The position numbers were made by a program, and so were the translations under genes. Positions 3,017 to 59,117 of a stretch of DNA of 64,000 bases are shown here, in pieces. Origin of the DNA: an uncultured Polyangiaceae bacterium. GTDB lineage: Bacteria > Myxococcota_A > Polyangia > Polyangiales > Polyangiaceae. Under the pieces are notes generated by a model. The model searched no databases, was not told where the DNA came from, and saw nothing but the letters and a program-made list of their open reading frames with translations. Every line of letters starts with the position of its first letter. The first letter of the stretch is position 1. Where the stretch lies: contig CAZSUA010000001.1 in the NCBI GenBank assembly GCA_964609655.1, forward strand, positions 11,839-75,838, read 5' to 3'.

Positions 3017-3065
3017 AAACGTCAGTGAGTACCTCGTTCTTCAGCGCTGTGTCTAGGCCGCGCCG

Positions 3066-10351: not shown

Positions 10352-10929
10352 GGCTGCGCGAGCTCGGGGCGCTCTTGTCGGCGGCGGCTTTCTTTCAGCT
10401 CGGTTGCGAGGAGCCGGTGGCAACCGGAAATTTGGTTCCAACCCCAACCGCCCAGGCTGCTGCGGTCGGAGTTGAGGCAGCGGCCAGACCCGCGCCTCCG
10501 CGGGTGGAATTTCAGGAGTCGGAATTTTCCGAATCGGATCGTAGTCGAGACCCGTTTCGCAGTTTTCAGGATCTCATCCTGGCAGAGGTTCGCGGAAACC
10601 TGCGTTCGCAGCGCAACGTGGTGCTCGAGGAGTACTCGATCGATGAATTGAGGCTGATCGGGCTGGTGACTGGAATTCAACCGGCCAAGGCCATGCTGGT
10701 CGATCCAAAAGGCAAAGGTCATGTCGTCCAGCGGGGCCAATTCATCGGGCGCCCAGAGACAGTTCAGGCGGCGGGTCCCGGCGCCACGAGCTTCGAGATC
10801 AACTGGCGCATCGACAGCATTCGAGACGGTGACATCATTTTGGTTCGGGAAGACCCGAACAATCCCGATGTTCCGAGTTCTACACGTGTGATCGCCATCC
10901 GGCCCGAAGGCGAACAGCCGCCTCAGTGA
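10348..10929 (+). CDS. pilP: type IV pilus lipoprotein PilP
   Basis: Lipobox FFQLGC after a signal-like segment. Its start overlaps the pilO stop, and it sits directly before the secretin gene. Confidence 0.8.
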   Translation: MRLRELGALLSAAAFFQLGCEEPVATGNLVPTPTAQAAAVGVEAAARPAPPRVEFQESEFSESDRSRDPFRSFQDLILAEVRGNLRSQRNVVLEEYSIDELRLIGLVTGIQPAKAMLVDPKGKGHVVQRGQFIGRPETVQAAGPGATSFEINWRIDSIRDGDIILVREDPNNPDVPSSTRVIAIRPEGEQPPQ

Positions 10930-11039
10930 GCATTGGGCCAGGAAGCCTGTTTACATCGAGTCCCTTGGCCTGACACAATCAAACTGAATTGGTCCAAGAG
11001 GAAAATGTGCCCACCCTGCGATCGAGTTGGAGCTAAGCG

Positions 11040-26274: not shown

Positions 26275-27008
26275 GAATCCACCACCTCCGTTGTCACGAA
26301 GAGTGCCAAAATTACCAAGCTCAGGTCGAAGACGATGCGTCGCAGATCGACGATGCCTTTGCTGAATTCCTCCATGTGGCTCAGCATCGAGACGTGCGAA
26401 CAAAGGGCGTGCAAGGGGCCTGGCTCGAAGATGTACTCCCCGACACCCAACACAAAAATGCCAAACTGCAAAAGGACACTGAGCATGAGTGCAGCAAGCT
26501 GGCTCTTGGTGAGCGCGCTCATCAGCGTCCCGATTGCCAGATAAGCCGCGCCCAGCAGCGCAAGCCCGAGGTAGCTGCTAGCGACAACCCACGGATCGAC
26601 CACGCCCGTTCCCCTGAGAATTACTGGATAAAGGAGCGTGGGGCTCCACATGAGCAGGTACGTAGTGAACGTTGCTAGGTACTTGCCGAGTACAATGGCA
26701 GAAGCTCGTACCGGTGCGGTGAGCAGGGGTTCAATGGTGCCACTTCGTTGCTCTTCAGCGAAGGAACGCATGCTCAGGGCGGGGCACATGAGGAGCAGGG
26801 TCATCAGCAAGAAGATGGAGCCTTGCCCGAAGTAGGATTCGATGGGGCCGTTGTCGAAACTAAGCTCGGTGGCGCCCGAGAAATGCAATACGATCGAGTA
26901 GAAGACTCCGCCCTGAAGCAACAGAAACGTTGTGAGCAGGATCCAGGCAACCGGCGTGACCCAAAGCGCCCAAAGCTCGCGCCGATAGATCGCCCAAAAA
27001 CCCGTCAT
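26259..27008 (-). CDS. ABC-2 type transporter permease (GldF-like)
   Basis: 249-aa polytopic membrane protein whose start overlaps the ATPase stop (ATGA). Confidence 0.8.
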   Translation of the reverse strand: MTGFWAIYRRELWALWVTPVAWILLTTFLLLQGGVFYSIVLHFSGATELSFDNGPIESYFGQGSIFLLMTLLLMCPALSMRSFAEEQRSGTIEPLLTAPVRASAIVLGKYLATFTTYLLMWSPTLLYPVILRGTGVVDPWVVASSYLGLALLGAAYLAIGTLMSALTKSQLAALMLSVLLQFGIFVLGVGEYIFEPGPLHALCSHVSMLSHMEEFSKGIVDLRRIVFDLSLVILALFVTTEVVDSWRWS

Positions 27009-27997
27009 GAGCGGAGCTCCTCACGCTGGGCAGCGGGCCTGTCTGGGAGGGGTGTTGGTTGAGCTTCGGTGAGGGCAGAGAAGACTTCCTCCAGTTTCGC
27101 GCGTGCCGTCTCCACGCGTCGGACGCCGACCTGGTGCTCGACCAGCTGAGTCACTGCTTTTTCCAGTTGAAGCTCAACATCGCTGACGTCAGGCGTCCAC
27201 TCTGTTTCTAAGGTGAGAATCTGTGAGTGAGACGCTTCTACCTGCGAGAGGGTCTTGGCACCCAGGCTTTCGAGCAAGCTTTTTGCCATACCCGGGGCAT
27301 CGCGCAGCTCCCAGTACACCCGTCGCGATTGGCGGTGCCGCAGCAGCTCCCCGATCGGCCCTTCCGCCACCAACTGGCCCTGATGCAGCACTAAGGCGCG
27401 TTCACAGATCGCCTCCACTTCAGACAGGATATGGGTCGAGAGCAGCACGGTGTGCTCCCGCGCCAAACTATGAATCAGTTCGCGCACTTCTCGGATTTGG
27501 TTCGGATCGAGGCCGGCTGTCGGTTCATCCAAGATCAAAAGCGGCGGATTAGACACCAACGCATCGGCCAGCCCCACGCGTTGTCGATAGCCTTTGGAGA
27601 GGTGGCCAATCACGGTGTTGCGCATGTCTGCGACGCGCGAAAGGTCCATCGCGCGTTGGACAGCAAGCTTCCGTTCTCGGCGCGGTACGAGCTTCAACGC
27701 CGCACGAAAAGCGAGGTATTCAGCCACGCGCATTTCAGGATACAGCGGCGCGGCCTCGGGCATGTAGCCGATGGCCCGGCGCGCTCGCATGGGCTCTTCG
27801 GAGACATCGTGGCCGAGAACTCGGACCGTACCTCGGCTAGGCCCCAAGAAGCCTGCAAGCATGCGGAGCGTGGTGGTCTTCCCGGCGCCATTCGGACCCA
27901 AGAACCCAACCACCTGGCCTGCGCTGACTGAGAACGAAAGGTCGCGGACCGCGCTGAACGCTCCATACTCTTTGCTCAAGTTCAAAGCCTCGATCAT
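27005..27997 (-). CDS. ABC transporter ATP-binding protein (GldA-like)
   Basis: GPNGAGKTT (Walker A), LSKGYRQRVGLA (signature) and LLILDEPTAGLD (Walker B). ATG at 27997 (MIEALNL) is preferred over 28021. Confidence 0.9.
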   Translation of the reverse strand: MIEALNLSKEYGAFSAVRDLSFSVSAGQVVGFLGPNGAGKTTTLRMLAGFLGPSRGTVRVLGHDVSEEPMRARRAIGYMPEAAPLYPEMRVAEYLAFRAALKLVPRRERKLAVQRAMDLSRVADMRNTVIGHLSKGYRQRVGLADALVSNPPLLILDEPTAGLDPNQIREVRELIHSLAREHTVLLSTHILSEVEAICERALVLHQGQLVAEGPIGELLRHRQSRRVYWELRDAPGMAKSLLESLGAKTLSQVEASHSQILTLETEWTPDVSDVELQLEKAVTQLVEHQVGVRRVETARAKLEEVFSALTEAQPTPLPDRPAAQREELRS

Positions 27998-28035
27998 GGG
28001 GACCGGGCGGAGGCATAGCATGCGTCAGGGGAAAG

Positions 28036-36460: not shown

Positions 36461-37312
36461 TCAGAAGTCGTAGCGGATGCCAAATTCGGCTGAGTTGCCC
36501 GCACTGAGCTCGCGGATGAAATAGGGCTCGAACGAGAACGTTCTGTCGTTACCCCAAATTGGCAAGCGTTGAGGCGGAAAGTTCGTCTCCGCTAGCACTT
36601 GCCCAAGCTTTGGGTGCCGCTGAAGCATCCGCAGGGGCTCAGTTGCTGGCTCAAATTCGAGGGCAAGGTAATAGCCACGCGCCCAATCGCTTTGAGTTTT
36701 TTGTTCGATGAATCCAGCCTGGTTCAGCGCATATCCCGCATTTTCTGGGACTCTTACGGCGAGCGAGGGCTTGCAACAAGTGCCGCCATCGGTCAGCGGG
36801 AAGAACGGATGGGCAAACCACTCGATGGGCAAAGGCCGAGCCCCCGTGTTTTCAATCTGGGTCTCCGAGGAGAGTGAGCGTTCGTTGAGTGAGACCGTGC
36901 GCTTCAGGCGATAAGCTTGATCTTCAAATGTGTCTTCGCTGGTTAACGTGAACGACGTGGGCGTACTCTCAACCAGCCAGGGTAGGAAGCGCAATACCTC
37001 GGGGTTGTTATGCGCAAACGAGGGCTTCAGCTGGCCCGTGCGCCTGACTCGCCCGACGCCAATCACAGCGACCTCTTCTCCCAGCTCGGCGTTTTCATTG
37101 AGCACGCGTACAAATTGTTCGGGTGCCCCTTGGCCGTGAAAGACATCGGGATTTGTCGCCGGAAACTGCGGCCCAGCCAAGAGCGGCCCCAAGGCTTGGT
37201 CGGTCACTTGATAGATGTAGCCGCCGACGCAATAGCGCGAGCCCAAGCGAGCGAGATCCAGAGCAGGATCCAGAATTTCCACGTTGAGTTGTGCGTTTTT
37301 TAGGTGAAACAT
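36461..37312 (-). CDS. hypothetical protein, possibly aldose-1-epimerase (mutarotase)-fold
   Basis: The ATG at 37312 (MFHLKNAQLNVEILDP) lies 1 nt after the recQ stop. WFAHPFFPL resembles the mutarotase HPYFN block. The longer ORF-track version overlaps recQ. Confidence 0.55.
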   Translation of the reverse strand: MFHLKNAQLNVEILDPALDLARLGSRYCVGGYIYQVTDQALGPLLAGPQFPATNPDVFHGQGAPEQFVRVLNENAELGEEVAVIGVGRVRRTGQLKPSFAHNNPEVLRFLPWLVESTPTSFTLTSEDTFEDQAYRLKRTVSLNERSLSSETQIENTGARPLPIEWFAHPFFPLTDGGTCCKPSLAVRVPENAGYALNQAGFIEQKTQSDWARGYYLALEFEPATEPLRMLQRHPKLGQVLAETNFPPQRLPIWGNDRTFSFEPYFIRELSAGNSAEFGIRYDF

Positions 37313-37313
37313 G

Positions 37314-39368
37314 TCATTCCTGTGGGTTCGCTTGCACCACTTGCAGAAATCCCTGCCCATAGGCAGCAGCTTTGGCGGGGCCGATCCCATGAACGAGTAG
37401 GAGTGCCGCTTCTGTCTTGGGACGGAGCGTTGCAATGTCCCGAAGCGTGCGATCACTCGCGACCACGTACGCAGGCACGCCTTGGGTTTGGGCCACCTCC
37501 AAGCGATGGCCCCGCAAAGCTTCGAAGAGAGCATGCGACGCGGGATCGATGGCTTCGTCGGCGCGCGTGCCCGCACGTGCTCCCGCGGAGTTGGCCAAGG
37601 GCGCGGGCGAACGGTCGCGTGGGGGTAGGCGCAGACGAATCGGGCGCAGCCCCTTCATCGCTTCTCGGCCTTCTAGTGTGAGGCGGATGAGCGGACGCTC
37701 ATCTTTGGTGAAGCCCAGCCAGCCGGCGGTCATGCAGCGTCGCAAGAGCTTAGTGAGCCACTCTTCGGAATAGGCCTTGAGCACACCGAATGTCGGTGAA
37801 TCCTCGAGCGCCATCCTCTCCAAACGCGGATCTTTTTGGCCCCGTGCGAGCTTCACTGCGGCCGTCAAGCCAAGCTGCGCGTGCACGCGCGCGACGGCGC
37901 TCAGAGCTTTTCTGACGATGAGCGCCGTCTCTTGCTCGTCCGCGTCGTCGTCTGTTGCAAGGCCCAAGCATACGTCACAGCGCCCGCAACCCTGCAGTGT
38001 TTCGGCTTCATCCTCGAAGTAGCGCAGAATCGCGTCGTGGCGGCAGCTGCCCCCCTCCACCCAGCGCATGAGCTCAAGGAAGAGGTTCCACTTGTGCTCG
38101 ACCACGTTCGCATCGGGCGCGCGCCCGTCCACTTCCTTCTGCAAGAGCTGGCGGCGGAGTGCCAGATCTTGGGGTCGTGCTAGCAGTAAACCTATCGCCG
38201 GTTCACCGTCTCGACCGGCACGCCCGACTTCTTGATAGTAAGCTTCGATCGAGCCGGGCGGCCCCAGATGCACCACGGCGCGCACATCACCGCGATCGAT
38301 GCCCATGCCAAACGCATTGGTGGCCACCACGATGGTTGCCTCACCGTGAATAAAGCTGGCTTGCGCCCGCTCGCGCTCTTTCGAAGGCAAGCCGGCATGA
38401 TACGCCGCCGTATGCCACCCCAGTGCCGCCAAGCGCGCAGCTTCCTTCTCCGCGCCTTTACGCGTGGGAGAATAGACGATCGCCGTTCCCAGCGGCTTCT
38501 TGGGCTTCCCGAGCGCCTCTTCCAGCGTCGCATCCACGTGTTTTTCTCGTTCACGCAGTGATGAAATTTCCCGCGCTCGCAGGATCAAATTGGGGCGCGC
38601 AAAACCGCGCAGCACTTGCGGCGTGTCAGAGCCGAGCCCTAGGCGTTGCAAGATCTCATCCCGCACGATGGGGGTCGCTGTCGCAGTACAGGCTAAGATC
38701 TTGACGCCCACCATCTGGCGCACAAAGTCCCCAATCCCCAAATAATCAGGGCGAAAATCATGGCCCCATTCGCTGATGCAATGCGCTTCATCGATCGCGA
38801 TGAGCGGGCAGGAGAGTGCGCGCACAGTCGCGCGGAAACCTGGATAGGCCAGTCGCTCAGGGGCAACGTACAGGAGCTGATAGTCGCCCCGGGCCAGCTT
38901 CGCCAGACGCTTCTTGGTCTCTTCGGGTGGTAGCGTGGCGGCTAAATAGGTCGCAGAAATGCCGCGTGCCGTGAGCGCCGAAACCTGATCGTGCATGAGC
39001 GCGATCAACGGGGAGATCACCACCGTGGTTCCCGAAAGCAGCGAACCCGGAAGCTGATAGCACAGACTCTTACCGCCTCCGGTTGGCGCCACCAGAAGCA
39101 ACTTGCCATGTTCGAGCAATGCCAGAATGGACTCGCGCTGACCCGGTCGGAACTCCGAATATCCAAGCCTTTGAAGCCCAGCATCGAGGTCGAGCACTCC
39201 GGGAGCTGCCGCCGTCACAGCTTGGGTGTATGCGCGAGCCCGCAGCTGAGAACAAGTGATAAGGCCGGGCCTTGCCTTCCCGACGCCTATCATCGACACT
39301 CCCGCCCGTGAAGTTGTGGATAGCGTGTGGATTAGTGTTCGTTGCCGTCGGGGCTTGTGCGGGTCCAA
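37314..39368 (-). CDS. recQ: ATP-dependent DNA helicase RecQ
   Basis: APTGGGKSLCYQLP (motif I), DEAHCISEWGHDFRPDY, the zinc-binding cluster CRHD...CGRCDVC, and a C-terminal HRDC-like region. The start is ambiguous: ATG 39368, ATG 39293 or GTG 39218. Confidence 0.92.
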   Translation of the reverse strand: MDPHKPRRQRTLIHTLSTTSRAGVSMIGVGKARPGLITCSQLRARAYTQAVTAAAPGVLDLDAGLQRLGYSEFRPGQRESILALLEHGKLLLVAPTGGGKSLCYQLPGSLLSGTTVVISPLIALMHDQVSALTARGISATYLAATLPPEETKKRLAKLARGDYQLLYVAPERLAYPGFRATVRALSCPLIAIDEAHCISEWGHDFRPDYLGIGDFVRQMVGVKILACTATATPIVRDEILQRLGLGSDTPQVLRGFARPNLILRAREISSLREREKHVDATLEEALGKPKKPLGTAIVYSPTRKGAEKEAARLAALGWHTAAYHAGLPSKERERAQASFIHGEATIVVATNAFGMGIDRGDVRAVVHLGPPGSIEAYYQEVGRAGRDGEPAIGLLLARPQDLALRRQLLQKEVDGRAPDANVVEHKWNLFLELMRWVEGGSCRHDAILRYFEDEAETLQGCGRCDVCLGLATDDDADEQETALIVRKALSAVARVHAQLGLTAAVKLARGQKDPRLERMALEDSPTFGVLKAYSEEWLTKLLRRCMTAGWLGFTKDERPLIRLTLEGREAMKGLRPIRLRLPPRDRSPAPLANSAGARAGTRADEAIDPASHALFEALRGHRLEVAQTQGVPAYVVASDRTLRDIATLRPKTEAALLLVHGIGPAKAAAYGQGFLQVVQANPQE

Positions 39369-47681: not shown

Positions 47682-49670
47682 ATGAAACAACCAGGCTCCG
47701 CTCGCGCGCTCCAAACCATTCTTACGGCGCTTGCAGTCGCACTCCTCACCCTCGGCGTTATCCAACTGAACGCCATCGAAAAACGCGTTTCCACGCAGGA
47801 GCAACAGATCCGCGCACTCGGCGAATCCTCGGAGCGGATGGTGGGGGCGCTCGGACGGATGAAGGGTGGGGTCTCTTCATCCGGAGAGTCCAAAACCACT
47901 GCGCGAGCGCAATCTGGCTGCGAGATTCAGACGATTCGGCATCCAGAGCTCAAGGATTTTCTAGGGGCCCAGGACATACATTGGCCGCCTGAAGGGGCCA
48001 ACACCGAAGGAGTTCTGACCAAAGGTTGGTCGACTGGCGATCCGAAAGGCTTCAACGCTTTCCTGGAGAACGGTGCTGACATTGGCGAGGACATCGTCAA
48101 CTACACCGACCTAGGTCTGGCGTCCCGCAACAAATGGACGAACCCAGATACCTGGTACGGCGACCTCGCCTGCCGAGTTGAGATCACAGACGATTATAAA
48201 GAGTACACCATCTACCTTCGGCGCGGGGTCATGTGGCACGTGCCGGCCGCTGTCGACGTCAAGACTCCCAAATACGCTTGGCTTGACAAGCCGCACGAAT
48301 TTACCGCCGACGATTTGATTTTTGGTTTAGATATCTTGATGAATCCGCAAGTCGAGAACGGTTCAACCAAGAATTATTACCAAGAACTCGAGAGCTGGAA
48401 GGCGCTCGATCCCTACACCGTCCAAATTCGTTGGAAAAAGAAGGTGTACCTGGGGCTTGGGGCCACACTGGGAATGGCGCCCCTCCCCAAGTTTCTGTTT
48501 GGATATGACGAGCAGGGCAAGGCGTTTCCCAAGGAGACGATTGGTCTTCGCTTCAATCAGCACTGGTACAACGGCAAAGGCTACGTTGGAACAGGCCCGT
48601 ACCGCCTTTCCGAGTACGTTCCCGGCGTCCGCATCGTGCTGGAGCGCAATGACGACTTCTTTGGCGAGAAGCCAGCGATTAAACGCATCGTGTACCCCAT
48701 CTACACTGATCCAACCACCACCGTTCTGAAGATGAAGGCGGGAGAGCTGCAAATGGTTCCGAGCCGCGGCCTCAGTCCCGGTCAGTACCGTGAGGAAGTT
48801 CTCCGATATTTGGATAAACCGAAGGACACTTGGCCTAAGAATAGCCCCTTTCTGGACGGTACCATTAAGTGCAATGTCGTCGGATCGGGTGGGTTTAGAT
48901 ACCTCGGATGGAACATGAGCCATCCGTTGTTTCGCGATGCTAAAGTGAGAACGGCGATGACGTTAGCTCTTAACCGCAAACAGATCATCGCCAATGTCTT
49001 CGCGGGCCTTGGGGAGATCGCAATGGGCCCGTTCTTGCCGGCCACGGGTTATCTCGATCCGACTGTGGACCCTCTGGACTTTGATCTCGGACGCGCCAGT
49101 CGCCTCTTATCCGAAGCTGGGTGGGTTGATTCCGACAAAGACGGGCTCCTCGATAAGGTGATCGATGGCAAGAAGATGCCCTTTGAGTTCACTCTGCTCG
49201 TCTACGGCAATCGGCCTGAATACAAAGGATTGGCCAGTATCTTCAAAGAGGATCTGCTAAAAATTGGTATCAAGCTGAACATCGCGGCCCCTGAGTGGAG
49301 CCTCATGCAGAAGCGGATGGAGGAAAAGAATTTCGAGGCCTACACCGGAGGCTGGGGGCTTGCCTGGGAAACGGATCCTTACCAAATCTGGCATTCATCT
49401 CAGGCGGACATTCCGAAGGGTTCCAATGTTGTAAGTTTCCGAAGTAAGGAAGCAGACTCACTCATGGAGCGCCTGCGGGAAACCTTTGATCCCAAGGAGC
49501 GCCAGACGATGCTGCGTCGAATTCATCGTTTGATCTACGACGAGCAGCCTTACACATTTTTCATGACGGACAAGACTGTGGTGTGTACGCACAAAGACGT
49601 GCAAAATGTCAGCTTTGCCAAGGTGCGCCCCATCGCCGATCTCTTCCCTTGGTGGGTTGCCGCTAACTGA
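47682..49670 (+). CDS. ABC transporter substrate-binding protein, family 5 (OppA/DppA type), with an N-terminal TM anchor and coiled coil
   Basis: N-terminus ILTALAVALLTLGVIQL followed by heptad-like EKRVSTQEQQIRALGES. The rest is a family-5 SBP-like sequence of ~580 aa. First gene of a five-gene operon. Confidence 0.85.
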   Translation: MKQPGSARALQTILTALAVALLTLGVIQLNAIEKRVSTQEQQIRALGESSERMVGALGRMKGGVSSSGESKTTARAQSGCEIQTIRHPELKDFLGAQDIHWPPEGANTEGVLTKGWSTGDPKGFNAFLENGADIGEDIVNYTDLGLASRNKWTNPDTWYGDLACRVEITDDYKEYTIYLRRGVMWHVPAAVDVKTPKYAWLDKPHEFTADDLIFGLDILMNPQVENGSTKNYYQELESWKALDPYTVQIRWKKKVYLGLGATLGMAPLPKFLFGYDEQGKAFPKETIGLRFNQHWYNGKGYVGTGPYRLSEYVPGVRIVLERNDDFFGEKPAIKRIVYPIYTDPTTTVLKMKAGELQMVPSRGLSPGQYREEVLRYLDKPKDTWPKNSPFLDGTIKCNVVGSGGFRYLGWNMSHPLFRDAKVRTAMTLALNRKQIIANVFAGLGEIAMGPFLPATGYLDPTVDPLDFDLGRASRLLSEAGWVDSDKDGLLDKVIDGKKMPFEFTLLVYGNRPEYKGLASIFKEDLLKIGIKLNIAAPEWSLMQKRMEEKNFEAYTGGWGLAWETDPYQIWHSSQADIPKGSNVVSFRSKEADSLMERLRETFDPKERQTMLRRIHRLIYDEQPYTFFMTDKTVVCTHKDVQNVSFAKVRPIADLFPWWVAAN

Positions 49671-49685
49671 AGGCGGCCAAGGCGC

Positions 49686-51137
49686 ATGACGACGTATATC
49701 CTTCGGCGCCTCCTGATCATGATTCCGACTTTCCTCGGAATTTCTGTGATCCTTTTCCTCGTCTTGAACCTAGCTCCCGGACGACCCGGCAAACCCCAAG
49801 GCGATACGGCCTCGGAACTCAAAGGGCAAACAACCCAGGAATCCTATCGAATCTTTCGCGAGCAGTTCAATCTGGGCAAGCCAACGCTGCTGAATACCTA
49901 CTTTGCACTGTCCACCGCCGAAGTGGAAACCCGCCTCCGGATATTCGCGCAGATAGTCTCAGTATCCGTTTCAGAACGAATCAAAGCACAGGATGAGCTA
50001 GAGGATTATGGCAGTTATGCCGTGCCTCATTTGGTTGAGGTTCTGCAGTCAGCAACGACACACCACGATGCTAAGCTCCGTGATGTCGCCGTGTACTTTC
50101 TCAGCGTTACCGCTCAACGCCCACTCGTCGACCCGTACAATTCCGCGCCATCAGCCGAACTGACGAAACGCAACCACGCCATAGACTCCGAAAATTCCAA
50201 ACTTCGACTCCTTCGCTACCCGCTAGACGCGCCCGAATCCCAAAAGATCGAAATCGTGCGCGCGTGGCAAACTTGGTTCACGCAGAATCGCGACCGTTTC
50301 TCGTATTCCTTCACTGAGAAAGTCTCGATTTTTTTCACAGACACGCGCTTCGCGAAGTATTGGGCCAATTTGGTGCGGCTCGACTTCGGGATCTCGTTGG
50401 TTAGCAAGGAACCTGTATTTGAGACGCTGTTACGAAAGCTTCGTTACTCGTTGGGCCTATCCGTCGGCTCGCTCATCTTGGCCTATCTGATTGCCATTCC
50501 GCTTGGTGTGTTTTCCGCCGTAAGACGCGACACCACAGCTGATCGTTCGCTCACGGTTGGCCTGTTCATGCTGTATTCATTGCCTAGCTTTTTCGTGGCT
50601 ACGCTGCTTCTCTACTTTCTTTCGCAGGGCTCACCGTTTGAGAGCCTGCGGCTTTTTCCAACGGGTGGTTGGCAGTCCCAGAATGCGGCCCAAATGACCT
50701 GGTTTGAACAGATGGAGGACATTGCGTGGCATTTGGTGCTGCCGATGTTTTGCATGACTTATGGCTCGCTCGCGGCTCTTAGCCGCTACATGCGCTCGGG
50801 CCTGCTTGAGGTCATTCAATCGGATTATATTCGAACGGCGCGCGCCAAGGGCCTTCCGGAGATGAGCGTGATTGGTAAGCACGCCATGCGGAATGGGCTA
50901 TTGCCGATTCTGACTCTGCTTGCGGGGCTGTTGCCTGCGGTGCTCGGGGGCAGCGTGATCATCGAATACATCTTTGGCATCCCTGGGATGGGGCTCTGGG
51001 CCGTGGATGCTATCTACCAGCGTGATTACAATGTGATCATGGCGATTGAGCTCTTGTCGACGGTGCTCGTGCTCTTTGGCATCTTGCTCACCGATTTGAG
51101 TTACGCACTGGTAGATCCGAGGATTCGCTACTCATGA
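49686..51137 (+). CDS. ABC transporter permease (OppB/DppB type) with a ~150-aa extracytoplasmic insertion
   Basis: MTTYILRRLLIMIPTFLGISVILF N-terminus and the EAA-region block DYIRTARAKGLPE. The insertion lies between TM1 and the LDFGISL block. Confidence 0.88.
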   Translation: MTTYILRRLLIMIPTFLGISVILFLVLNLAPGRPGKPQGDTASELKGQTTQESYRIFREQFNLGKPTLLNTYFALSTAEVETRLRIFAQIVSVSVSERIKAQDELEDYGSYAVPHLVEVLQSATTHHDAKLRDVAVYFLSVTAQRPLVDPYNSAPSAELTKRNHAIDSENSKLRLLRYPLDAPESQKIEIVRAWQTWFTQNRDRFSYSFTEKVSIFFTDTRFAKYWANLVRLDFGISLVSKEPVFETLLRKLRYSLGLSVGSLILAYLIAIPLGVFSAVRRDTTADRSLTVGLFMLYSLPSFFVATLLLYFLSQGSPFESLRLFPTGGWQSQNAAQMTWFEQMEDIAWHLVLPMFCMTYGSLAALSRYMRSGLLEVIQSDYIRTARAKGLPEMSVIGKHAMRNGLLPILTLLAGLLPAVLGGSVIIEYIFGIPGMGLWAVDAIYQRDYNVIMAIELLSTVLVLFGILLTDLSYALVDPRIRYS

Positions 51138-52381
51138 CGCCGAACCAAGAGCAGGCTGAGATCGACTGGCAGAGGCTGTCTTACCTGAGCATGGTTTGGG
51201 GTCAGTTTAAAAAGAATCGGCTGGCTTTGGTCGGGCTCTATGCCGTGTTGGTATTGCTGCTGCTCGCGATCTACGCGCCATTTATTTCGAGTAACCAGCC
51301 ATTTTATCTGTCGGTTCGTGGGGATACGTCGTTTCCGTTTTGGCGTGGCCTGTTCAATCGGCTGCTCTACGAGAATGCGGTCGATATTCTATTCAACCTG
51401 GCGCTCGTGCTCTCGCCGCTCTACCTGGTCGCATTCGTATTGTTGAAGCGGGGCCTGGGCGCGCGGTTCTTTCGGCTCAGGGTGCGCGTCCTCGGTATGT
51501 TGGTCGGGTCGTTTTTTGCGCTCTACCTGCTGATGCTGCCCGAGAGCTTTCTAGCCTTTGATAACCCGTTGCATCGGAAGGAGAAGGTGACGAACTTCAC
51601 GCACGTGGTCCAAGAATTGGACGCGAAGCACGAGGCGTACGCTGCTTGGTTCCCTCCGCTTCGCTACGGATACCGAGACACTGATCCGGCGCGCAACGTT
51701 GAACCACCCACCCAAGCACATTGGCTTGGCACGGATACCGAGGGCAGGGATGTCTTCACCCGTATGCTGTTTGGCACGCGCATTTCGCTCACGATCGGTG
51801 TGGTTGCTGTATCGATCTATGTCGGCATTGGGCTCATTCTGGGAGCATTGGCTGGCTACTTTGCCGGCTGGGTGGACATGCTCATCAGCCGCTTGATCGA
51901 AGTCATGATTTGCTTTCCAAGCTTCTTTTTGATCCTCACGATTGCGGCTCTCATCGAACAACGCTCCATCTTCCATGTGATGCTGATCATTGGCGTCACC
52001 AGTTGGACTGGCGTTGCACGCCTCATCCGTGCTGAGTTCTTGAAACACCGCTCGCTCGAATATGCCCAAGCAGCGCTAGCCCTCGGGATCCCGCGTTTTC
52101 GCATCATGTTTCGACACATTTTGCCAAACGCGATCGCGCCGGTGCTGGTGAGCGCTACGTTCGGTGTGGCCTCCGCCATCCTGATTGAATCGAGCCTCGC
52201 CTTCCTCGGAATTGGAGATCTCACCGTGGCGAGCTGGGGTGAAACGCTCAACGCGGGGCGCCTGGAACAGAAGCTGTGGCTGATTCTTGCGCCTGGCTTT
52301 GCCATCTTCTTCGTGGTCAGCGTTTTTAACCTGGTGGGTGAAGGGTTGCGCGACGCACTCGACCCCAAGCTGAAGACATGA
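51134..52381 (+). CDS. ABC transporter permease (OppC/DppC type) with an extended N-terminal region
   Basis: HWLGTDTEGRDVFTRMLFG and EYAQAALALGIPRFRIMFRHILPN. Its start overlaps the upstream stop (ATGA). Confidence 0.88.
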   Translation: MTPNQEQAEIDWQRLSYLSMVWGQFKKNRLALVGLYAVLVLLLLAIYAPFISSNQPFYLSVRGDTSFPFWRGLFNRLLYENAVDILFNLALVLSPLYLVAFVLLKRGLGARFFRLRVRVLGMLVGSFFALYLLMLPESFLAFDNPLHRKEKVTNFTHVVQELDAKHEAYAAWFPPLRYGYRDTDPARNVEPPTQAHWLGTDTEGRDVFTRMLFGTRISLTIGVVAVSIYVGIGLILGALAGYFAGWVDMLISRLIEVMICFPSFFLILTIAALIEQRSIFHVMLIIGVTSWTGVARLIRAEFLKHRSLEYAQAALALGIPRFRIMFRHILPNAIAPVLVSATFGVASAILIESSLAFLGIGDLTVASWGETLNAGRLEQKLWLILAPGFAIFFVVSVFNLVGEGLRDALDPKLKT

Positions 52382-53415
52382 CGAACCTGCTTGAGCTGAC
52401 TGATCTTAAGGTGCAGTTTCGTACGGGTGCTGGCATCGTGCGTGCGGTGGATGGTGTCAGTTACACGATCGCGCCCGGAAAGACGCTCGCGGTGGTCGGT
52501 GAATCCGGCTGCGGCAAGAGTGTCACGGCCATGACCATCCTGCGGTTGATTGAAAAGCAGCGTGGCGAGGTCACGGCTGGAAGCGTGAAGTTCGAGGGGA
52601 GAGAGCTGCTGCTTTTGGACGACGAAGCGATGCGGGCCGTGCGCGGCAATGACATTGCCATGATCTTTCAAGAGCCGATGACGAGCCTCAATCCGGTCTA
52701 CACCATCGGTGATCAAATCGGAGAGGTGCTGGAGTTGCACCGCGGCATGCGGGGGGAAGAGCAACACGCGGAGATCCTACGCTTTCTGACGCTGGTGGGC
52801 ATTCCCTCGCCAGAACAGCGGCTTCACGAGTACCCACACCAACTTTCGGGCGGAATGCGCCAACGCGTCATGATCGCGATGGCCCTCTCGTGTCATCCGA
52901 AGCTCCTGATTGCCGACGAACCCACCACGGCGCTCGACGTCACCATCCAAGCGCAGATACTTACACTTCTTCGGGAGCTTCAGGCTGAGTTTGGCATGTC
53001 GATCCTGCTCATCACTCACGATCTTGGAGTGGTTGCATCCATGGCTCAGGATGTCGCGGTCATGTATGCCGGACGCATCGTGGAACACGGGACGGTGTTT
53101 GATATCTATGAGCGCCCCAAACACCCGTATACAGCGGGCCTCCTGCGTTCTTTGCCAACCTACGATGCAAGCGGAAGGCACCTTGAGCCAATTTTTGGCA
53201 GCGTGCCAGACGCGCTGAACCTGCCCAACGGCTGTCGTTTTCATCCCCGCTGCGGGTTCCGTGTAGAGAAATGCCTAACTATAGCTCCGCCTCTCGTTTC
53301 ACACGGTGGTGAACATGCAGCCGCCTGTTTCGTGACAGCGGAAGATCCCGCACTGGATCTCATGCAAAATAGCGGCGCTCCGTCACGGGGCGCGGGGGAT
53401 CCCAACCATGAGTGA
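52378..53415 (+). CDS. ABC transporter ATP-binding protein (OppD/DppD type)
   Basis: [35 protein letters not shown], and a C-terminal HPYT...GCRFHPRC tail. Confidence 0.92.
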
Positions 53416-55078
53416 GCCACTCCTGCGCGTGCGCGGCCTCACCAAGCATTTCCCGGTCACTCGAGGCGTTTTTGGTCGCGTGGTGGGCCAAGTGCGAGCG
53501 GTGGATGATGTCTCTTTTGATCTAGCGCCCGGCGAAACACTGGCATTGGTTGGTGAATCTGGCTGCGGGAAAACAACCGTCGGCCGGCTCTTGCTTCGCC
53601 TGATCGAAGCCACCGCAGGCGGGATTGACTTCGAGGGCCGAGACATTCGCAGCCTGAGTCCGAACGCGCTTCGGCCGTTGCGTCGCGACATGCAGATCAT
53701 TTTTCAGGACCCATACAGCTCGCTCAACCCCCGCATGCGAGTGCTGGATATCGTGGGAGAAGCGCTGGCTGTCCACGGTATTGCGAAAGGCAAGGAGATG
53801 GAGGAGCGCGTGCAGAAGCTCCTCGAAAAAGTGGGCGTGGCTGCATCGTGGATGCACCGCTATCCGCACGAATTTTCAGGCGGGCAACGGCAACGCATCG
53901 GGATCGCGCGCGCCTTGGCCCTCAACCCGAAGCTCATCGTGTGCGACGAAGCCGTTTCCGCGCTCGACGTCTCGATACGCGCTCAGGTGATCAACCTTTT
54001 GATCGAGCTCCAACGAGAACTCAATCTTGCGTACCTCTTCATCTCACACGATCTATCGATCGTGAAGTTCATTTCACAACGCGTGGCGGTGATGTACCTC
54101 GGTCAGATCGTGGAGCTCGCGCCGACGGATGCGCTGTTTTCCCGCCCCTCACATCCTTATACTCGTGCGCTTTTGTCGGCCGTGCCGTGGCCGGACCCAA
54201 GGCGCCCTGTGCATAGCGTTGCCTTACACGGAGACGTACCGAGCGCATTGCGTCCCCCCTCGGGCTGTCGCTTTCACACGCGCTGCCCCGCCAGAATGGA
54301 GCGCTGCACAACCGAGGAGCCGCCAACCTTCGAACTTGAGCCTGGACACCAAACACACTGCTGGCATGCGGAAGGTCTAGAATCCCAGGCGGATTGGTGG
54401 GTTCAGCTGGAACGGCGATTTGCCGACGCAGAGAAGCAACTTGCAGCCCGCTCTTCAACTCCGAACACCGCATCTGAACGTTCGTCAACTCCTTCGACCA
54501 GGGCTCAAGCGAGTGCAAGCCCCACAACTAAGCCCATGCCTGCGAGTTCAGGCGTCACGAGTGACGCCGCCTTAGACGCGGACACTGATCTCGATCGTTG
54601 GGTGGCTCGCGTCATCTATGTTGCACTATTGCTGGCGGGAGCCACAGCGACGCTTCTCGGACACCCATTTTGGGGGTTTCCGATAGGACTGTGCGGCTTC
54701 GTAGCGCTGCTCGCGCCCGGTCAACGCTTTCGGCTCAGCGCGTATCGACGCTTCGGGTTAGGATTATTGGCTGTGATCTTGATCTCATTCGGGGTGAGGC
54801 AGCTTGAGCGACGCCGCACCGCGATCACACAGTTAGAATCCCTACAACGTGAGCTCATGGCCTACGTGGCGAAGACAGGTGAACCGCCCGTCCGACTTTC
54901 GGAGTTGGGTTTTCGACTCTACGCCATCTTTCCCGATGGAAATGCCACCGATCCCTGGGGGAATTCCTGGAAATATCGACCAGGAGTGAACCCGAAGCAG
55001 CGTTTCCAGCTCGGCAGCTTCGGCCCAGACAAGAAGCAGGGTACAGACGATATTGGAACCCCGCCGACAGCCCCCTAG
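53408..55078 (+). CDS. ABC transporter ATP-binding protein (OppF/DppF type) fused to a linker, three TM segments and a GspG-like pseudopilin domain
   Basis: The NBD motifs [24 protein letters not shown] and [12 protein letters not shown] run to about aa 325. After that comes an S/T/P/A-rich linker, three hydrophobic segments, and ...[12 protein letters not shown]...[18 protein letters not shown]. Confidence 0.85.
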
Positions 55079-55084
55079 CTTCCC

Positions 55085-57100
55085 ATGTATCGCACCCTCA
55101 TCAGTGTTCTCTTGGCATTCGCTTTCACGCTGCTGCTGGTCGGTCTCACGTTCTCGGCTTCGCTGGATGCCGCGCCTGATTATCGCTTCATCAATGGCAC
55201 CGAGCCGAAAACACTCGACCCTCATCTAGCCACGGGCGAGCCGGAAAATCGTATCATCTCCGCTCTCTTTGAGGGGCTGACGCGCTACGACCCCAAAACC
55301 CTAGAAGCGGCGCCGGGAGTCGCTGAGCGCTGGACACTCTCTTCTGATCTCAAGACCTACACCTTCCACTTAAGGAAGAATGCAGTGTGGTCCAATGGGC
55401 GCCCAATCACGGCGGCAGACTTTATTTATTCTTGGAAGCGAGTGTTGGATCCGGCGTTAGGCGGTGAGTACGCCTACATTTTATTTCCGGTCCAATTCGC
55501 CGAAGCCTACAACGCCTACAAGTCCTACGCGGAGGCTATCCGAGGCCCCCTCAAGGCTAAGCTGGCTGCCCTCATCGAGAAGAACGATTCTATCGATGCT
55601 GCGCGATGGCAAAAGTTCTTGGCTGAAGCCGACGCGCACGGGCCCCTGAAGGCCACCGAGCAGAAGGTTCTGCGAGATCTTCTGACCTTCAAACAGGGCA
55701 GCTTGAATCGAGAACAACTGAACGCTTTTTCGCAAGGCCTGGATCTCGAAGCGAAGCTCCTCTTGGAGAAGAATGCAGAGGCACGACAGAAGCTGGGGAA
55801 AACAGCCGGGTTCATGGCGCCCGACGAGCACACGTTCGTTGTTGAACTCAAGGCACCGACTCCCTATTTTCTTGAAATCACCTCCTTTTATCCCAGTATG
55901 CCGGTTCCGCGTTTCGTGATCGAACAGCCGGGCAATGATAGCGACTGGTTCACACCAAAAAAGATTGTCAGCAATGGCCCCTTCCTGCTCAAAACCTGGA
56001 ACGTCAACGAACGGATCCGGCTCAATAAGAACTCAACTTATTGGGGCCACGCCGAGGTGCGCACCAACGCGCTGGATGTCTTGCCAACCGAGCAGCTGAC
56101 CACCTCTCTCAACATGTATCTCACCGGCGAAGCGGATTGGCTAACCAACAACCTCTATCCCAGTGATCTGGTGCAAGATCTCCGACGCCGAGCCGACTTC
56201 CACAGTGGGCCCGCCCTGACCGTCTATTACTATCGCTTCAACAATAAGAAGAAGCCCTTCAACGACGTTCGTGTTCGCCACGCGCTGAATTTAGCCGTCG
56301 ATCGGAAGCTGATCGTTGAACGAGTCCTTGGTCTCGGACAGTTGCCCGCGGTCAGCTTCGTGCCCCCCGGCATGCTGGGTTACGATTCGCCCCCGAGCAA
56401 GATTGGCCTAGATCTAGCGCTCGCGCGCGAGCTTTTGGCGCAGGCCGGATTCCCCGGCGGGCAGGGATTCCCTGAAGTGGGGATTCTTTACAACACGAAC
56501 GAGACGCATAAGAAGATTGCCGAAGTCATCGCCGATCAACTGAAGCGAAACCTCGGCGTTGCAGCCAAAGCCTACAACCAGGAATGGCAATCCTATATAT
56601 CGACCGTTCGGGGCCAAGGCTATGATATCGCGCGTGCGGCCTGGGTTGGAGACTACAGTGACCCTAACACGTTCCTGGACATGTGGGTAACCAACGGCGG
56701 CAACAACCAAACTGGCTTCAGCTCACCCATCTACGATCAGCTCATTGCGTACGCGGGAAACTTGGAGCCCTTTTTAGCCAATCCCGAAGGTCTGTTGGCT
56801 CACCTCAAGGAGCCGGCAATGATTCGCCAGGAGCTTGAAGGTGCACGCGCTGGTTCTGTGGCCCAGAAATCCGCGGCCTGGGGGAAAATCCGCATGCAAC
56901 TCATGCGAGAGGCCGAAAGCATCCTTGTCCAGGATGAGTTCCCAATCATGCCAATCTACTTCTACGTGAACTCAGATCTGGTGAATCCCAGGCTGCGCGG
57001 CTTCTACTCTGAGCTCGAGTTTCGAGACGGAAAGCGGGCACCGAACTTTAAGGGTATTCACCCGCTCCGAGATATCTGGGTAGAGAAGGGCCAACCATGA
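55085..57100 (+). CDS. ABC transporter substrate-binding protein, family 5 (second operon)
   Basis: Signal/TM segment LISVLLAFAFTLLLVGL followed by family-5 SBP-like sequence (NGTEPKTLDPH...). Confidence 0.88.
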   Translation: MYRTLISVLLAFAFTLLLVGLTFSASLDAAPDYRFINGTEPKTLDPHLATGEPENRIISALFEGLTRYDPKTLEAAPGVAERWTLSSDLKTYTFHLRKNAVWSNGRPITAADFIYSWKRVLDPALGGEYAYILFPVQFAEAYNAYKSYAEAIRGPLKAKLAALIEKNDSIDAARWQKFLAEADAHGPLKATEQKVLRDLLTFKQGSLNREQLNAFSQGLDLEAKLLLEKNAEARQKLGKTAGFMAPDEHTFVVELKAPTPYFLEITSFYPSMPVPRFVIEQPGNDSDWFTPKKIVSNGPFLLKTWNVNERIRLNKNSTYWGHAEVRTNALDVLPTEQLTTSLNMYLTGEADWLTNNLYPSDLVQDLRRRADFHSGPALTVYYYRFNNKKKPFNDVRVRHALNLAVDRKLIVERVLGLGQLPAVSFVPPGMLGYDSPPSKIGLDLALARELLAQAGFPGGQGFPEVGILYNTNETHKKIAEVIADQLKRNLGVAAKAYNQEWQSYISTVRGQGYDIARAAWVGDYSDPNTFLDMWVTNGGNNQTGFSSPIYDQLIAYAGNLEPFLANPEGLLAHLKEPAMIRQELEGARAGSVAQKSAAWGKIRMQLMREAESILVQDEFPIMPIYFYVNSDLVNPRLRGFYSELEFRDGKRAPNFKGIHPLRDIWVEKGQP

Positions 57101-58212
57101 TCGAGGCCATCACGATCCTGGTTGGCTTTGTCATCATCGCGAGCACGGCGTGGTTGGGCCCGAAATCCGCGAGGATCGCAGCTCCGCTATTGCTGGCCGG
57201 CATGCTCTACATTGGAGGGCGAGCCGGCTGGGGGCAGCTCACGGGAGTTATCTTGGCAGTGGGCGGCGGCGCGCTCGCCTATTTCTTTGCTCCCTTGCGT
57301 GTGTTGCGGCGCGTTGCCTTCCTCGTGCCCTCCCTGGTTCTCCTCATCTATACGACGACGCTGCTCATGTATCGCGCTCCCGGGAATCCATTTGCGGGAG
57401 AAAAGGTCGCGGATCCGCAAGTTGAGATGGCCTTGCGAGCTCACTACGGTGTTCCGAAAGACGCCACTCAATTCTTCTTTGTGTACATGCACCGGCTCGT
57501 CGTCGAAGGAACACTCGGGCCGTCGATCAAGGTTGCAGGTCGATCCGTGGAAGAGCTGATAGGCCCAGCGCTGCCAGTCAGTATTTCGATTGGCCTTTTG
57601 GCCTTGGCGCTGGCATGCGCCATTGGCTTAACACTTGGAGTGTGTGCGGGGCTCCGTCCTAACTCGCTTGCAGATTACGGCAGCATGACACTCGTTCTGT
57701 TCGGAATTTCACTGCCGAATTTCGTGATTGGAGCGCTTTTTATCATCATTTTTGCACTCAAGCTCGGTTGGCTTCCCGTGGCAGGCTGGGGTGGTTACCG
57801 GCACTTGATCATGCCTGCCTTTACGCTGGCCCTGCCGTACGCGGCCTATGTCGCTCGGCTCGCGCGCAGCGGTACCTTGGAAGTGATGCAACAAGATTTC
57901 ATTCGGACCGCTCGTGCCAAGGGCCTCCCAAGAAACATCATCGTCCTCAAGCATGCACTTAAGGGTTCGCTTCTCCCAGTCGTTTCCTTTCTCGGCCCAG
58001 CCGCCGCAGGTATCATGACGGGGTCTTTCGTCGTGGAAACGCTGTTTGGCGTGCCCGGCATCGGCCAATGGTTCGTGAAGGGTGCCATCAACCGAGATTA
58101 TTCGGTCGTGCTCGGGACAGCTATCATTTATTCCGGCCTCATCACGTCCTTCAATCTCGTCGTCGACCTGGCCTATGCATGGCTCGATCCCCGTGTGCGA
58201 GGGACCCTATGA
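57097..58212 (+). CDS. ABC transporter permease (OppB/DppB type) with extra N-terminal hydrophobic segments
   Basis: Contains the DFIRTARAKGLPRN block. Roughly 60 additional N-terminal residues carry hydrophobic helices. Confidence 0.88.
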   Translation: MIEAITILVGFVIIASTAWLGPKSARIAAPLLLAGMLYIGGRAGWGQLTGVILAVGGGALAYFFAPLRVLRRVAFLVPSLVLLIYTTTLLMYRAPGNPFAGEKVADPQVEMALRAHYGVPKDATQFFFVYMHRLVVEGTLGPSIKVAGRSVEELIGPALPVSISIGLLALALACAIGLTLGVCAGLRPNSLADYGSMTLVLFGISLPNFVIGALFIIIFALKLGWLPVAGWGGYRHLIMPAFTLALPYAAYVARLARSGTLEVMQQDFIRTARAKGLPRNIIVLKHALKGSLLPVVSFLGPAAAGIMTGSFVVETLFGVPGIGQWFVKGAINRDYSVVLGTAIIYSGLITSFNLVVDLAYAWLDPRVRGTL

Positions 58213-59117
58213 GGAACGCCCCGAGCAATTCTCACGCCGTAGATGTGCCGGCCGAAGCTGGCCGAAGCTTGAGGCAAGACGCTCTTTGCCGGCTCAAAGA
58301 GAATCGCATGGCTTTGGTGGGTGCAGCGCTCATTGTTCTCATACTTTTGGCGTGTTTTGCAGTCCCGACGCTGCTCCATCTCGATCCGGTGACCACGGAT
58401 CCCCAAAACCAGAAGTTGCCACCGTCCGCGCGCTATTGGTTCGGAACGGATAACCTGGGAAGAGACTATTTCGCTCGCGTTCTAGTGGGTGGGCAAACAT
58501 CACTCTTGGTCGGTTTCGCCGCGACGGCGGCTTCTGTATTCGTCGGCGTCTTCTATGGCGCGGTGGCTGGCTACTACGGCGGCAAGGTCGACGATGTCAT
58601 GATGCGCTTAGTCGATTTTCTTTATGGCATTCCGTACATGTTCTTGGTGATCATCATCATGCTGATGTTTTCCGAAACGGCGCGAGGCGAGGCGCTGCCA
58701 GTGTTCCTGGCGCTCGGCTTGGTCCAGTGGCTGGACATGGCCCGCGTGATTCGTGGCCAAGTGCTGACACTGAGGCGCCGTGAATTCGTGTTGGCCGCTA
58801 GGCTCTTGGGTGCGAGTGGCCCACGAATTATCCTGACCCACATCCTGCCCAACGCCCTCGGAGTCATTCTCGTCTATGCAACGCTCACGGTTCCCGCCGT
58901 GATCATCCTCGAGTCCTTTCTCTCTTTTTTGGGGCTCGGAGTCACGCTTTCGTGGGGAGAATTGGTGGCCGAAGCGGTTGGCGTGGTCAATCCGATTCGC
59001 TCGTATTGGTGGCTACTTCTGTGGCCAAGTCTCTTTTTGGGTCTGACTCTTTTTAGCCTCAATTTTCTGGGAGATGGGCTCAGAGACGCAACGGATCCCC
59101 GGTCGAGGAAGCTATGA
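58209..59117 (+). CDS. ABC transporter permease (OppC/DppC type)
   Basis: YWFGTDNLGRDYFARVLVG and EFVLAARLLGASGPRIILTHILPN. The ATG at 58209 overlaps the upstream stop (ATGA), and the ORF-track start at 58068 lies inside the previous gene. Confidence 0.88.
   Translation: MRNAPSNSHAVDVPAEAGRSLRQDALCRLKENRMALVGAALIVLILLACFAVPTLLHLDPVTTDPQNQKLPPSARYWFGTDNLGRDYFARVLVGGQTSLLVGFAATAASVFVGVFYGAVAGYYGGKVDDVMMRLVDFLYGIPYMFLVIIIMLMFSETARGEALPVFLALGLVQWLDMARVIRGQVLTLRRREFVLAARLLGASGPRIILTHILPNALGVILVYATLTVPAVIILESFLSFLGLGVTLSWGELVAEAVGVVNPIRSYWWLLLWPSLFLGLTLFSLNFLGDGLRDATDPRSRKL

Follow-up and report, generated by a model that had tools for sequence, protein, structure and literature searches.

How does the ATPase of a peptide importer come to end in a domain resembling the major pseudopilin of type II secretion, is such a protein real, and what would it do? 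The question is raised by a stretch of 64,000 nucleotides, hereafter the window, from an uncultured Polyangiaceae bacterium (assembly GCA_964609655.1, contig CAZSUA010000001.1, positions 11,839 to 75,838). One of its open reading frames (ORF), at 53408-55078 on the forward strand, had been interpreted without database searches, in what we call the sequence-only reading, as an OppF-type ATP-binding cassette (ABC) ATPase fused to three transmembrane (TM) helices and a GspG-like tail. We find that the gene encodes a true fusion, which combines two known kinds of protein and occurs only in uncultured Polyangia. In the textbooks, the ATPase subunits of binding-protein-dependent ABC importers are soluble and peripheral proteins. 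The fusion breaks this rule, as it is predicted to be a bitopic or polytopic ATPase ending in a periplasmic domain. We hold this architecture, together with its topology, to be nearly certain. The gene, which codes for 556 aa, runs from an ATG to a TAG, and its start shares an 8-nt overlap with the stop of the gene before it. Its parts are as follows.

53408-55078 (+), whole fusion gene, OppF1::linker::anchor::GspG-like head (ORF and Pfam; same 556-aa ORF in the contig L087, see below)
53504-53956 (+), ABC_tran nucleotide-binding core, aa 33-183 (Pfam, E 3e-32)
54110-54361 (+), oligo_HPY C-terminal domain, aa 235-300, and four invariant cysteines (Pfam, E 2e-20; family alignments)
54395-54454 (+), family-specific helix after oligo_HPY, aa 330-349, with the motif DWxxxLExR (AlphaFold, block pLDDT ~90; alignment)
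54458-54586 (+), disordered linker rich in Ser, Thr, Pro and Ala, aa 351-393, ~45 residues (pLDDT <50; high G+C at second codon positions, GC2, and low G+C at third positions, GC3)
54599-54721 (+), uncharged hydrophobic hairpin, aa 398-438, with GHPFWG between its two helices, optional in the family (models, family comparison)
54722-54745 (+), short basic loop, predicted to be cytoplasmic (family mean of 4.0 Lys/Arg vs 0.6 Asp/Glu)
54746-54805 (+), obligatory TM helix, aa 447-466, in the position of the pilin alpha-1N and with no G-1/F+1/E+5 motif (model, alignments)
54806-55075 (+), GspG-fold head, aa 467-556, predicted to be periplasmic: alpha-1C, the motif L497-x2-L500-G-(W/F)-R503-L504, DPWG (encoded at 54950-54961) and a small beta-sheet (Pfam, profiles, model)
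55019-55057 (+), putative Ca2+-binding loop of the head (near-invariant Asp positions; correspondence drawn from the alignment)

The fusion is found well beyond this assembly. Over 13,390 bp, the window aligns free of indels and with 98.7% identity to an independent contig of metagenomic origin (L087, Ga0209490_10000823), in which the ten ORFs, the 556-aa fusion among them, have the same lengths. The two copies of the fusion gene differ by 22 substitutions, with five synonymous and no non-synonymous changes in the nucleotide-binding domain (NBD) and nine synonymous and three non-synonymous ones in the head. NCBI also has a third assembly of this species (GCA_038246305.1; BipA 99% identical). 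The wider family was uncovered by an exhaustive search with aa 395-556 over 1.84 billion representatives, which gave 73 proteins at E <=0.001, 18 of them at E <=1e-10. We called a match a fusion when the Walker A motif and/or the GCRFHTRCP motif, or the helix that follows oligo_HPY, was present upstream of the tail. OppF sequence occupies this position in no fewer than 20 sequence clusters with less than 50% identity. Full-length fused proteins of 504 to 589 aa include P0006 (549 aa), P0017 (550), P0019 (589), P0029 (513), P0053 (555) and P0059 (504). Six full-length fusions besides those of the window and L087 come from different samples and assemblers. The named members belong to metagenome-assembled genomes (MAGs) of Polyangiaceae and Myxococcota. 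Most of the other family-like matches are fragments at contig ends. Two of these, L097 and L098, were considered as stand-alone tail genes representing an ancestral split; both are open to the contig edge and are contig-truncated fusions instead. We conclude that the arrangement is conserved under purifying selection. None of the outcomes named in advance as refuting the sequence-only reading was obtained: the GspG match and fold are significant (see below), the NBD and the tail share one ORF in a second assembly of the species, and the fusion is not unique to the first.

Other searches returned less. A word-indexed homologue search with the single tail and an exact-sequence look-up of the 556-aa protein gave no match, and a search of genome contigs with the full-length protein found relatives of the NBD only, with the tail in none of the 80 loci listed. 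A metagenome search with a narrower alignment gave 9 loci, among them L087.

By domain, motif and operon criteria, the N-terminal part classifies as a predicted NBD of the OppF/DppF type, and the sequence-only reading was right in this respect. Residues 1-325 align end to end with the NCBIfam models of GsiA, DppF and OppF (E ~1e-117). All these scores are under the curated equivalog cut-offs (391 vs 408 for the DppF type, 374 vs 540 for OppF) and hence the substrate of the fusion ATPase cannot be assigned. Judged from its motifs, the NBD should be catalytically intact: the Walker A motif (GESGCGKT), the Q-loop (Q100), the SGGQ signature, the Walker B residues (D180-E181) and the H-loop (H214) are invariant in the family alignment. 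So are four cysteines of the oligo_HPY region (C287, C293, C300 and C318), which we take to be a motif of the kind that binds an iron-sulfur cluster in some Opp/Dpp ATPases; such a cluster is putative here. The protein thus shares with DppF and OppF of Escherichia coli and with GsiA residues 1-325, the catalytic motifs, the C-terminal cysteine cluster and the last position in the operon. However, the known members end soon after oligo_HPY, as does the OppF2 encoded nearby in the window (319 aa), whereas the fusion adds 230 residues and crosses the membrane.

The additional residues start with the helix at aa 330-349, which is not present in OppF2 or in the relatives from Bradymonadales described below. 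The linker that the sequence-only reading had described follows it, and differs in length and in sequence among family members. Its GC2 is high, as expected from codons for Ser, Thr, Pro and Ala. In the tail, GC3 is 0.60-0.68 and exceeds GC2, which fits coding in the frame of the fusion. No Shine-Dalgarno-like internal start that would allow separate expression of the tail was visible by eye in 54500-54610, which is a weak negative.

The resemblance of the tail to GspG is far beyond chance. The Pfam family T2SSG matches the whole protein with 24.8 bits and the tail alone with 29.7 bits (profile positions 13-100), for a cut-off of 21. A profile built from 22 family tails matches the solved chains of GspG, PulG, XcpT and EpsG in a profile search of the PDB, with E-values between 4e-10 and 2e-5. 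When aligned by hhalign with 12 canonical GspG proteins, all bearing a prepilin sequence, the family tails give a probability of 99.5% and an E-value of 2.5e-22 over 85 columns, and the matched region begins with alpha-1C and reaches as far as the C-terminal Ca loop. The structural models agree with these profiles. An AlphaFold2 model of aa 390-556, made with the alignment of family tails, has a mean confidence (pLDDT) of 91.9 and consists of helices at 2-27, 31-45 and 53-101 (tail numbering), followed by two short helices and a small beta-sheet. In the numbering of the full protein, the models place the helices of the hairpin at 388-416 and 420-435 and a continuous helix at 443-490. The first ~20 residues of the latter are hydrophobic, so that the last hydrophobic segment is continuous with alpha-1C as in pilins. 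The full-length model has a folded NBD, the helix at 330-349, the linker at 351-393 with pLDDT <50 and a folded head. In a Foldseek search of the PDB, the top matches are EpsG of Vibrio cholerae and V. vulnificus (4lw9 and 3gn9; probability 1.0, target TM-score 0.50-0.56), and type IV pilins rank after them. Besides the Pfam match, the GspG-like tail of the sequence-only reading has four independent lines of support (the profile search of the PDB, hhalign, the AlphaFold2 model and Foldseek), and the peptide strings quoted there are all present in the protein (aa 402-418, 424-437, 449-463, 471-494, 515-526 and 533-550).

Within the head, P494, L497, L500, R503, D515, P516 and Y523 are invariant in the family alignments. 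The motif L497-x2-L500-G-(W/F)-R503-L504 stands in place of the long alpha3-beta1 loop of canonical GspG, a loop that has been tied to secretion specificity (PMC13081927). In PulG and OutG, Ca2+ is bound by D117, S/T122, D125 and possibly D124, and the calcium site of GspG is structural (PMC13081927). The residues D541, T546 and D547/D548 of the fusion align with D117, S/T122 and D124/D125, respectively, and reach at least 90% conservation across family members. This points to a putative Ca2+ site, placed by alignment, although the loop is one residue shorter than in canonical GspG in most family members.

Is the protein then a pseudopilin? In the set of 12 canonical GspG proteins, G-1 is near-invariant, whereas F+1, L+3 and E+5 are invariant. 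In the alignment of 22 tails of the fusion family, the anchor lacks a conserved G, F or E, which agrees with the earlier observation that a prepilin-peptidase site is lacking. Furthermore, the sequence N-terminal to the anchor is not a short basic leader: it comprises 446 residues of ATPase, linker and hairpin. As there is neither a cleavage site nor a Phe+1 or Glu+5, the head is not a processed pilus subunit. In pilins, Phe+1 and Glu+5 mediate the packing of subunits. Cleavage, N-methylation and incorporation of the fusion protein into a fibre are very unlikely, judging from these sequence features, and the protein resembles a pseudopilin frozen in its membrane-embedded state before assembly. 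We considered its identity as a GspG major pseudopilin and rejected it: the class III signal peptide is missing, and so is a gsp context in the ~10 loci examined. The accurate term is GspG-fold domain, and the protein is not to be filed as a pseudopilin. In public annotation, full-length members go by the name "oligopeptide/dipeptide ABC transporter ATP-binding protein" and fragments by "type II secretion system protein GspG"; either name is misleading.

Compared with GspG, PulG and EpsG, the fusion has in common the homologous alpha-1C and head, the DPWG...Y signature, acidic residues that align with those of the Ca loop, a long helix with a hydrophobic first half and a predicted orientation with the N-terminus in and the C-terminus out. 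In contrast, it has no leader peptide, no G-1/F+1/E+5 and no gsp operon context, its N-terminus is a 390-residue ATPase plus linker, and it differs by the short LxxLG(W/F)RL motif and by a putative Ca loop that is mostly one residue shorter.

Proteins that carry T2SSG domains in architectures other than pilins were also present among the matches of the exhaustive search (P0026, P0038, P0040, P0052, P0055, P0056, P0057, P0061 and P0067). These include Lnb_N followed by a TM helix and T2SSG, three to four T2SSG repeats in tandem, DUF4190 hairpins followed by T2SSG, and an N-terminal region resembling TraB/PrgY (a weak match, below the cut-off) followed by several T2SSG repeats. This suggests that outside pili, too, the GspG head serves as a general module of the periplasm. 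The fusion resembles these proteins in having a minimal head and an uncleaved anchor and/or hairpin. Unlike the fusion, they are not joined to an ABC ATPase, and they are uncharacterised, so that no function can be transferred from them. A stand-alone protein made of a hydrophobic hairpin (DUF4190) and T2SSG, or of a TM helix and T2SSG, is a plausible donor of the tail.

The membrane anchor comes in two variants. Fourteen members have a hairpin and a TM helix (the window protein, L088, P0001, P0003, P0006, P0012, P0017, P0019, P0023, P0029, P0031, P0035, P0042 and P0053) and eight have a single TM helix (P0008, P0011, P0014, P0032, P0037, P0044, P0059 and P0064). The hairpin is thus kept in around two thirds of the family and missing from the rest. 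It has ~38 residues in the window protein, and 30-41 uncharged residues in the members that have one. Hence, the three TM helices proposed earlier have to be redrawn: the anchor is real, whereas its first two segments form one uncharged hairpin, which precedes one true TM helix. Because the hairpin adds either zero or two crossings, the total is odd in every member, and no variant of even parity was seen among the family members compared. A cytoplasmic NBD, an odd number of crossings and a basic loop before the last TM helix together place the head in the periplasm, as the sequence-only reading had argued from the number of helices, and this is the compartment to which we assign all known T2SSG domains. 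The head would thus be oriented like that of an unprocessed pseudopilin.

The genomic context is that of a peptide importer. The fusion gene is the fifth and last gene of an SBP5-OppB-OppC-OppD-OppF operon with two BPD_transp_1 permeases, which we call Opp1, and is followed by a second Opp operon. SBP stands for the substrate-binding protein.

47682-53415 (+), rest of the Opp1 operon (SBP1, OppB1, OppC1, OppD1; same order and sizes in L082, L084, L085, L086 and L087)
47682-49670 (+), SBP1, 662 aa, with an N-terminal hydrophobic anchor
49686-51137 (+), OppB1, 483 aa, with a periplasmic insert of ~225 aa
51134-52381 (+), OppC1, 415 aa, with two extra hydrophobic helices
52378-53415 (+), OppD1, 345 aa
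55085-61071 (+), second, conventional Opp operon (SBP2 with a Sec-type signal peptide, two permeases, OppD2, OppF2)

In six other loci (L082, L084, L085, L086, L087 and L088), Opp1 has genes of the same sizes and ends with the fusion gene; synteny of the operon is kept in L081-L086 and L088. The second operon begins 6 nt past the fusion gene in the window, and its OppF2 is tail-less. In 7 of the 9 informative loci, SBP2 lies within 0-6 nt after the fusion gene; its orthologue is directly 3' in the window and L087, L081, L082, L083, L085 and L097, and not in L086 or L098. The neighbours of the fusion gene in the loci examined are always Opp genes. The sequence-only reading had proposed to look for co-occurring genes of a type II secretion system (T2SS) or of type IV pili (T4P). 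No T2SS gene adjoins the fusion gene in any locus examined, and no gsp or pil gene is linked to it in ~10 loci (none within 10 kb in the case of gsp).

The closest named relatives of the NBD, with 65-67% identity, are from Bradymonadales MAGs (L001 and L002). The BipA of the window is 73-76% identical to proteins of Polyangiaceae and Sorangiineae MAGs. The Bradymonadales loci share the anchored SBP and the long permeases, and their OppF has neither TM helix nor head. This makes the head a lineage-specific addition to a pre-existing type of transporter. The OppF of these loci (L001 6897-8183; L002 about 11180-12327) carries instead an acidic low-complexity C-terminal extension of ~100 aa, and hence C-terminal appendages are variable on this lineage of OppF. 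Opp1 itself is atypical: in place of a normal signal peptide, SBP1 has a hydrophobic anchor of 21 residues at its start and a conserved helix, the insert of OppB1, of ~225 residues, sits between TM1 and TM2, and OppC1 has its two extra hydrophobic helices. The same features are present in the tail-less locus L002.

What might the head do? We propose that the C-terminus of an OppF-type importer ATPase captured a membrane-anchored, non-pilin module of the GspG fold, such that a whole ATPase would take the place of the pseudopilin leader peptide. The head would stay uncleaved and monomeric beside the transporter at a 1:1 stoichiometry, probably stabilised by Ca2+, with the putative Ca loop acting as a structural stabiliser as in GspG. 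It would then be a tethered periplasmic docking module that keeps a partner from the 10-gene Opp1/Opp2 unit near the transporter. Candidate partners are the stalk of the anchored SBP1, the periplasmic insert of OppB1 and the secreted SBP2, and the invariant LxxLG(W/F)RL surface is a candidate contact site. The sequence-only reading had suggested that the fusion could couple ATP hydrolysis to a periplasmic scaffold. This part is not supported in a mechanical sense: a linker of ~45 residues that is variable and predicted to be disordered argues against transmission of the power stroke of the NBD and suits tethering. The flexible linker would provide co-localisation, not mechanical transmission of ATP hydrolysis. 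We regard the docking role in itself as tentative, and give the overall explanation, in which architecture and topology are combined with this role, a probability of around 0.5.

Several observations weigh against this account, and some of them feed other explanations. No partner of the head was found: the OppB1 insert, the N-terminus of SBP1, the loop of OppC1 and the linker plus anchor gave no significant GspL/M-like, PilO-like or other domain, so that two of the candidate partner regions, the OppB1 insert and the SBP1 N-terminus, belong to no recognisable family. The periplasmic position of the head is based on parity and charge bias, and the second arm of the hairpin has only ~15 residues in the models; the hairpin may therefore be re-entrant, which would leave the parity unaffected. 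The Bradymonadales loci have the same type of transporter without the head, which is therefore dispensable for it. The head of P0029 is truncated; in P0059, the Ca loop is degenerate and Opp2 is missing downstream. Finally, in one locus, and only there, the NBD and the tail are separate ORFs (L096; GCA_002068195.1, contig MVYZ01001049.1, a MAG contig of 1.6 kb). Together with the NCBI annotation, which lists some tail fragments separately as "GspG", this locus could indicate that a frameshift or missed stop from sequencing or assembly had joined two genes. However, its break, at 800-940, falls within the conserved helix that follows oligo_HPY, where inverted repeats of the GGAGCGCT type abound, and the tail resumes in a different frame. 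The split is apparently a secondary disruption, and may be due to a small insertion or to a frameshift in a low-quality contig. Since the ORF is uninterrupted in L087, despite 22 substitutions, and recurs in six further full-length proteins, we reject an artefact, all the more because the short matches that seemed to stand alone, L097 and L098, run to contig edges; its probability is negligible. The same degenerate heads and the split locus, as well as the close relatives that do without a tail, would fit a gene for a downstream membrane protein that joined oppF by loss of a stop codon and left a tail with little or no function. This seems very improbable, as the fusion persists in at least 20 divergent clusters with invariant head residues, synonymous changes outnumber the others in the head, and both anchor variants keep the parity of crossings.

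Other explanations give the head a function of a different kind. On binding Ca2+ or a ligand or protein of the periplasm, it could modulate the transporter by the packing of its anchor on OppB/OppC, as an extracytoplasmic counterpart of the cytoplasmic regulatory domains of MalK or MetN. C-terminal regulatory domains on importer NBDs are indeed a known theme, the residues of the putative Ca loop are conserved, and the helix that directly follows the NBD (330-349) is both conserved and modelled with confidence. On the other hand, the disordered and variable linker offers no obvious allosteric path to the NBD, the calcium site is structural in GspG, as said above, and no ligand pocket is evident from the data; we find a sensor of this type unlikely. 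A head homologous to the major pseudopilin, with the topology of an unprocessed pilin, also raises the idea of a bridge, in which head and alpha-1 would dock on inner-membrane platform proteins of a T2SS or T4P, or on pools of pilins or pseudopilins, and place the importer beside the secretion or pilus apparatus of a predatory myxobacterium. The pilMNOPQ genes in the same window go in this direction, as does the ABC transporter PilGHI of Myxococcus xanthus, which, in the passage of PMC3546991 that quotes Wu et al. 1998, is needed for type IV pili. Yet Phe+1 and Glu+5 are both missing, the loop implicated in T2SS specificity (PMC13081927) is swapped for the short family motif, none of ~10 loci has a gsp or pil gene linked to the fusion gene, and the pil cluster of the window is 40 kb away. 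We thus see such docking as quite unlikely. A stronger version, in which the head plugs the Opp importer into the T2SS/T4P platform or the endopilin pool to form a "secrete-and-import" supercomplex, we consider a long shot. If true, the release of lytic enzymes or the dynamics of pili would be coupled to the uptake of the resulting peptides in predatory myxobacteria, and the ATPase would be a permanent, uncleavable "leader" marking the base of assembly.

Full-text literature searches for an importer ATPase with a pseudopilin domain returned no description, in line with the sequence-only reading, which was aware of no characterised ABC nucleotide-binding subunit with such a module. Some systems are related in part. 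In the archaeal "bindosome", sugar-binding proteins of ABC importers carry cleavable class III (pilin-type) signal peptides and are thought to assemble at the cell surface. As in the fusion, an element derived from pilins is found on a component of a binding-protein-dependent ABC importer; unlike there, it is the ATPase and not the binding protein that carries it, with an uncleavable anchor and a pilin head. MacB, LolCDE and FtsEX also associate, in one polypeptide or complex, an ABC ATPase with TM helices that bear a periplasmic domain. These use rigid stalk helices for mechanotransmission and have their own fold of the TM domain, whereas the fusion has a disordered linker and belongs to a type I importer with its own permeases. 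PilGHI of M. xanthus is a further myxobacterial link between an ABC transporter and machinery of the pilin family, but it is an exporter of the ABC-2 type encoded with pilA, with no fusion and no NBD of the Opp type.

An importer ATPase that ends in the periplasm implies a need to station something across the membrane at 1:1 with the motor. The partner of the head, if found, could show how myxobacteria organise the uptake of peptides, a central process in a predatory nutrition that is based on amino acids.

Elsewhere the window consists of ordinary chromosome, with bipA, gdh, pilMNOPQ, secA, recQ, glgP and others; it has no tRNA gene and no Rfam family at the gathering threshold (positions 1-64000). 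The following features lie at a distance from the Opp operons.

2144-4391 (-), D12-class N6-adenine DNA methyltransferase beside a 441-aa ORF without a Pfam match
8017-13346 (+), complete T4P alignment cluster pilM-pilN-pilO-pilP-pilQ (secretin), 40 kb upstream of the fusion gene
13920-18110 (+), 1396-aa protein with Ser/Thr protein kinase, GAF, sigma-54 activator AAA+ and Fis-type HTH domains
19296-21035 (-), second, stand-alone Ser/Thr kinase
22517-28021 (-), ABC ATPase, ABC-2 permease, ABC_transp_aux/DUF7088 protein and DUF4340 protein

The cluster at 22517-28021 presumably resembles the gliding-associated ABC systems of the GldA/F/G type. The methyltransferase and the 441-aa ORF may form a restriction-modification pair, and the methyltransferase is conserved beside bipA in GCA_038246305.1 (L099). 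Two calls of ORFs overlap their neighbours, by 145 nt (58068-59117 vs 57097-58212, forward strand) and by 263 nt (37314-39368 vs 36461-37576, reverse strand). For OppC2 and for the RecQ-like helicase, translation probably begins further downstream than the first start codon in frame.

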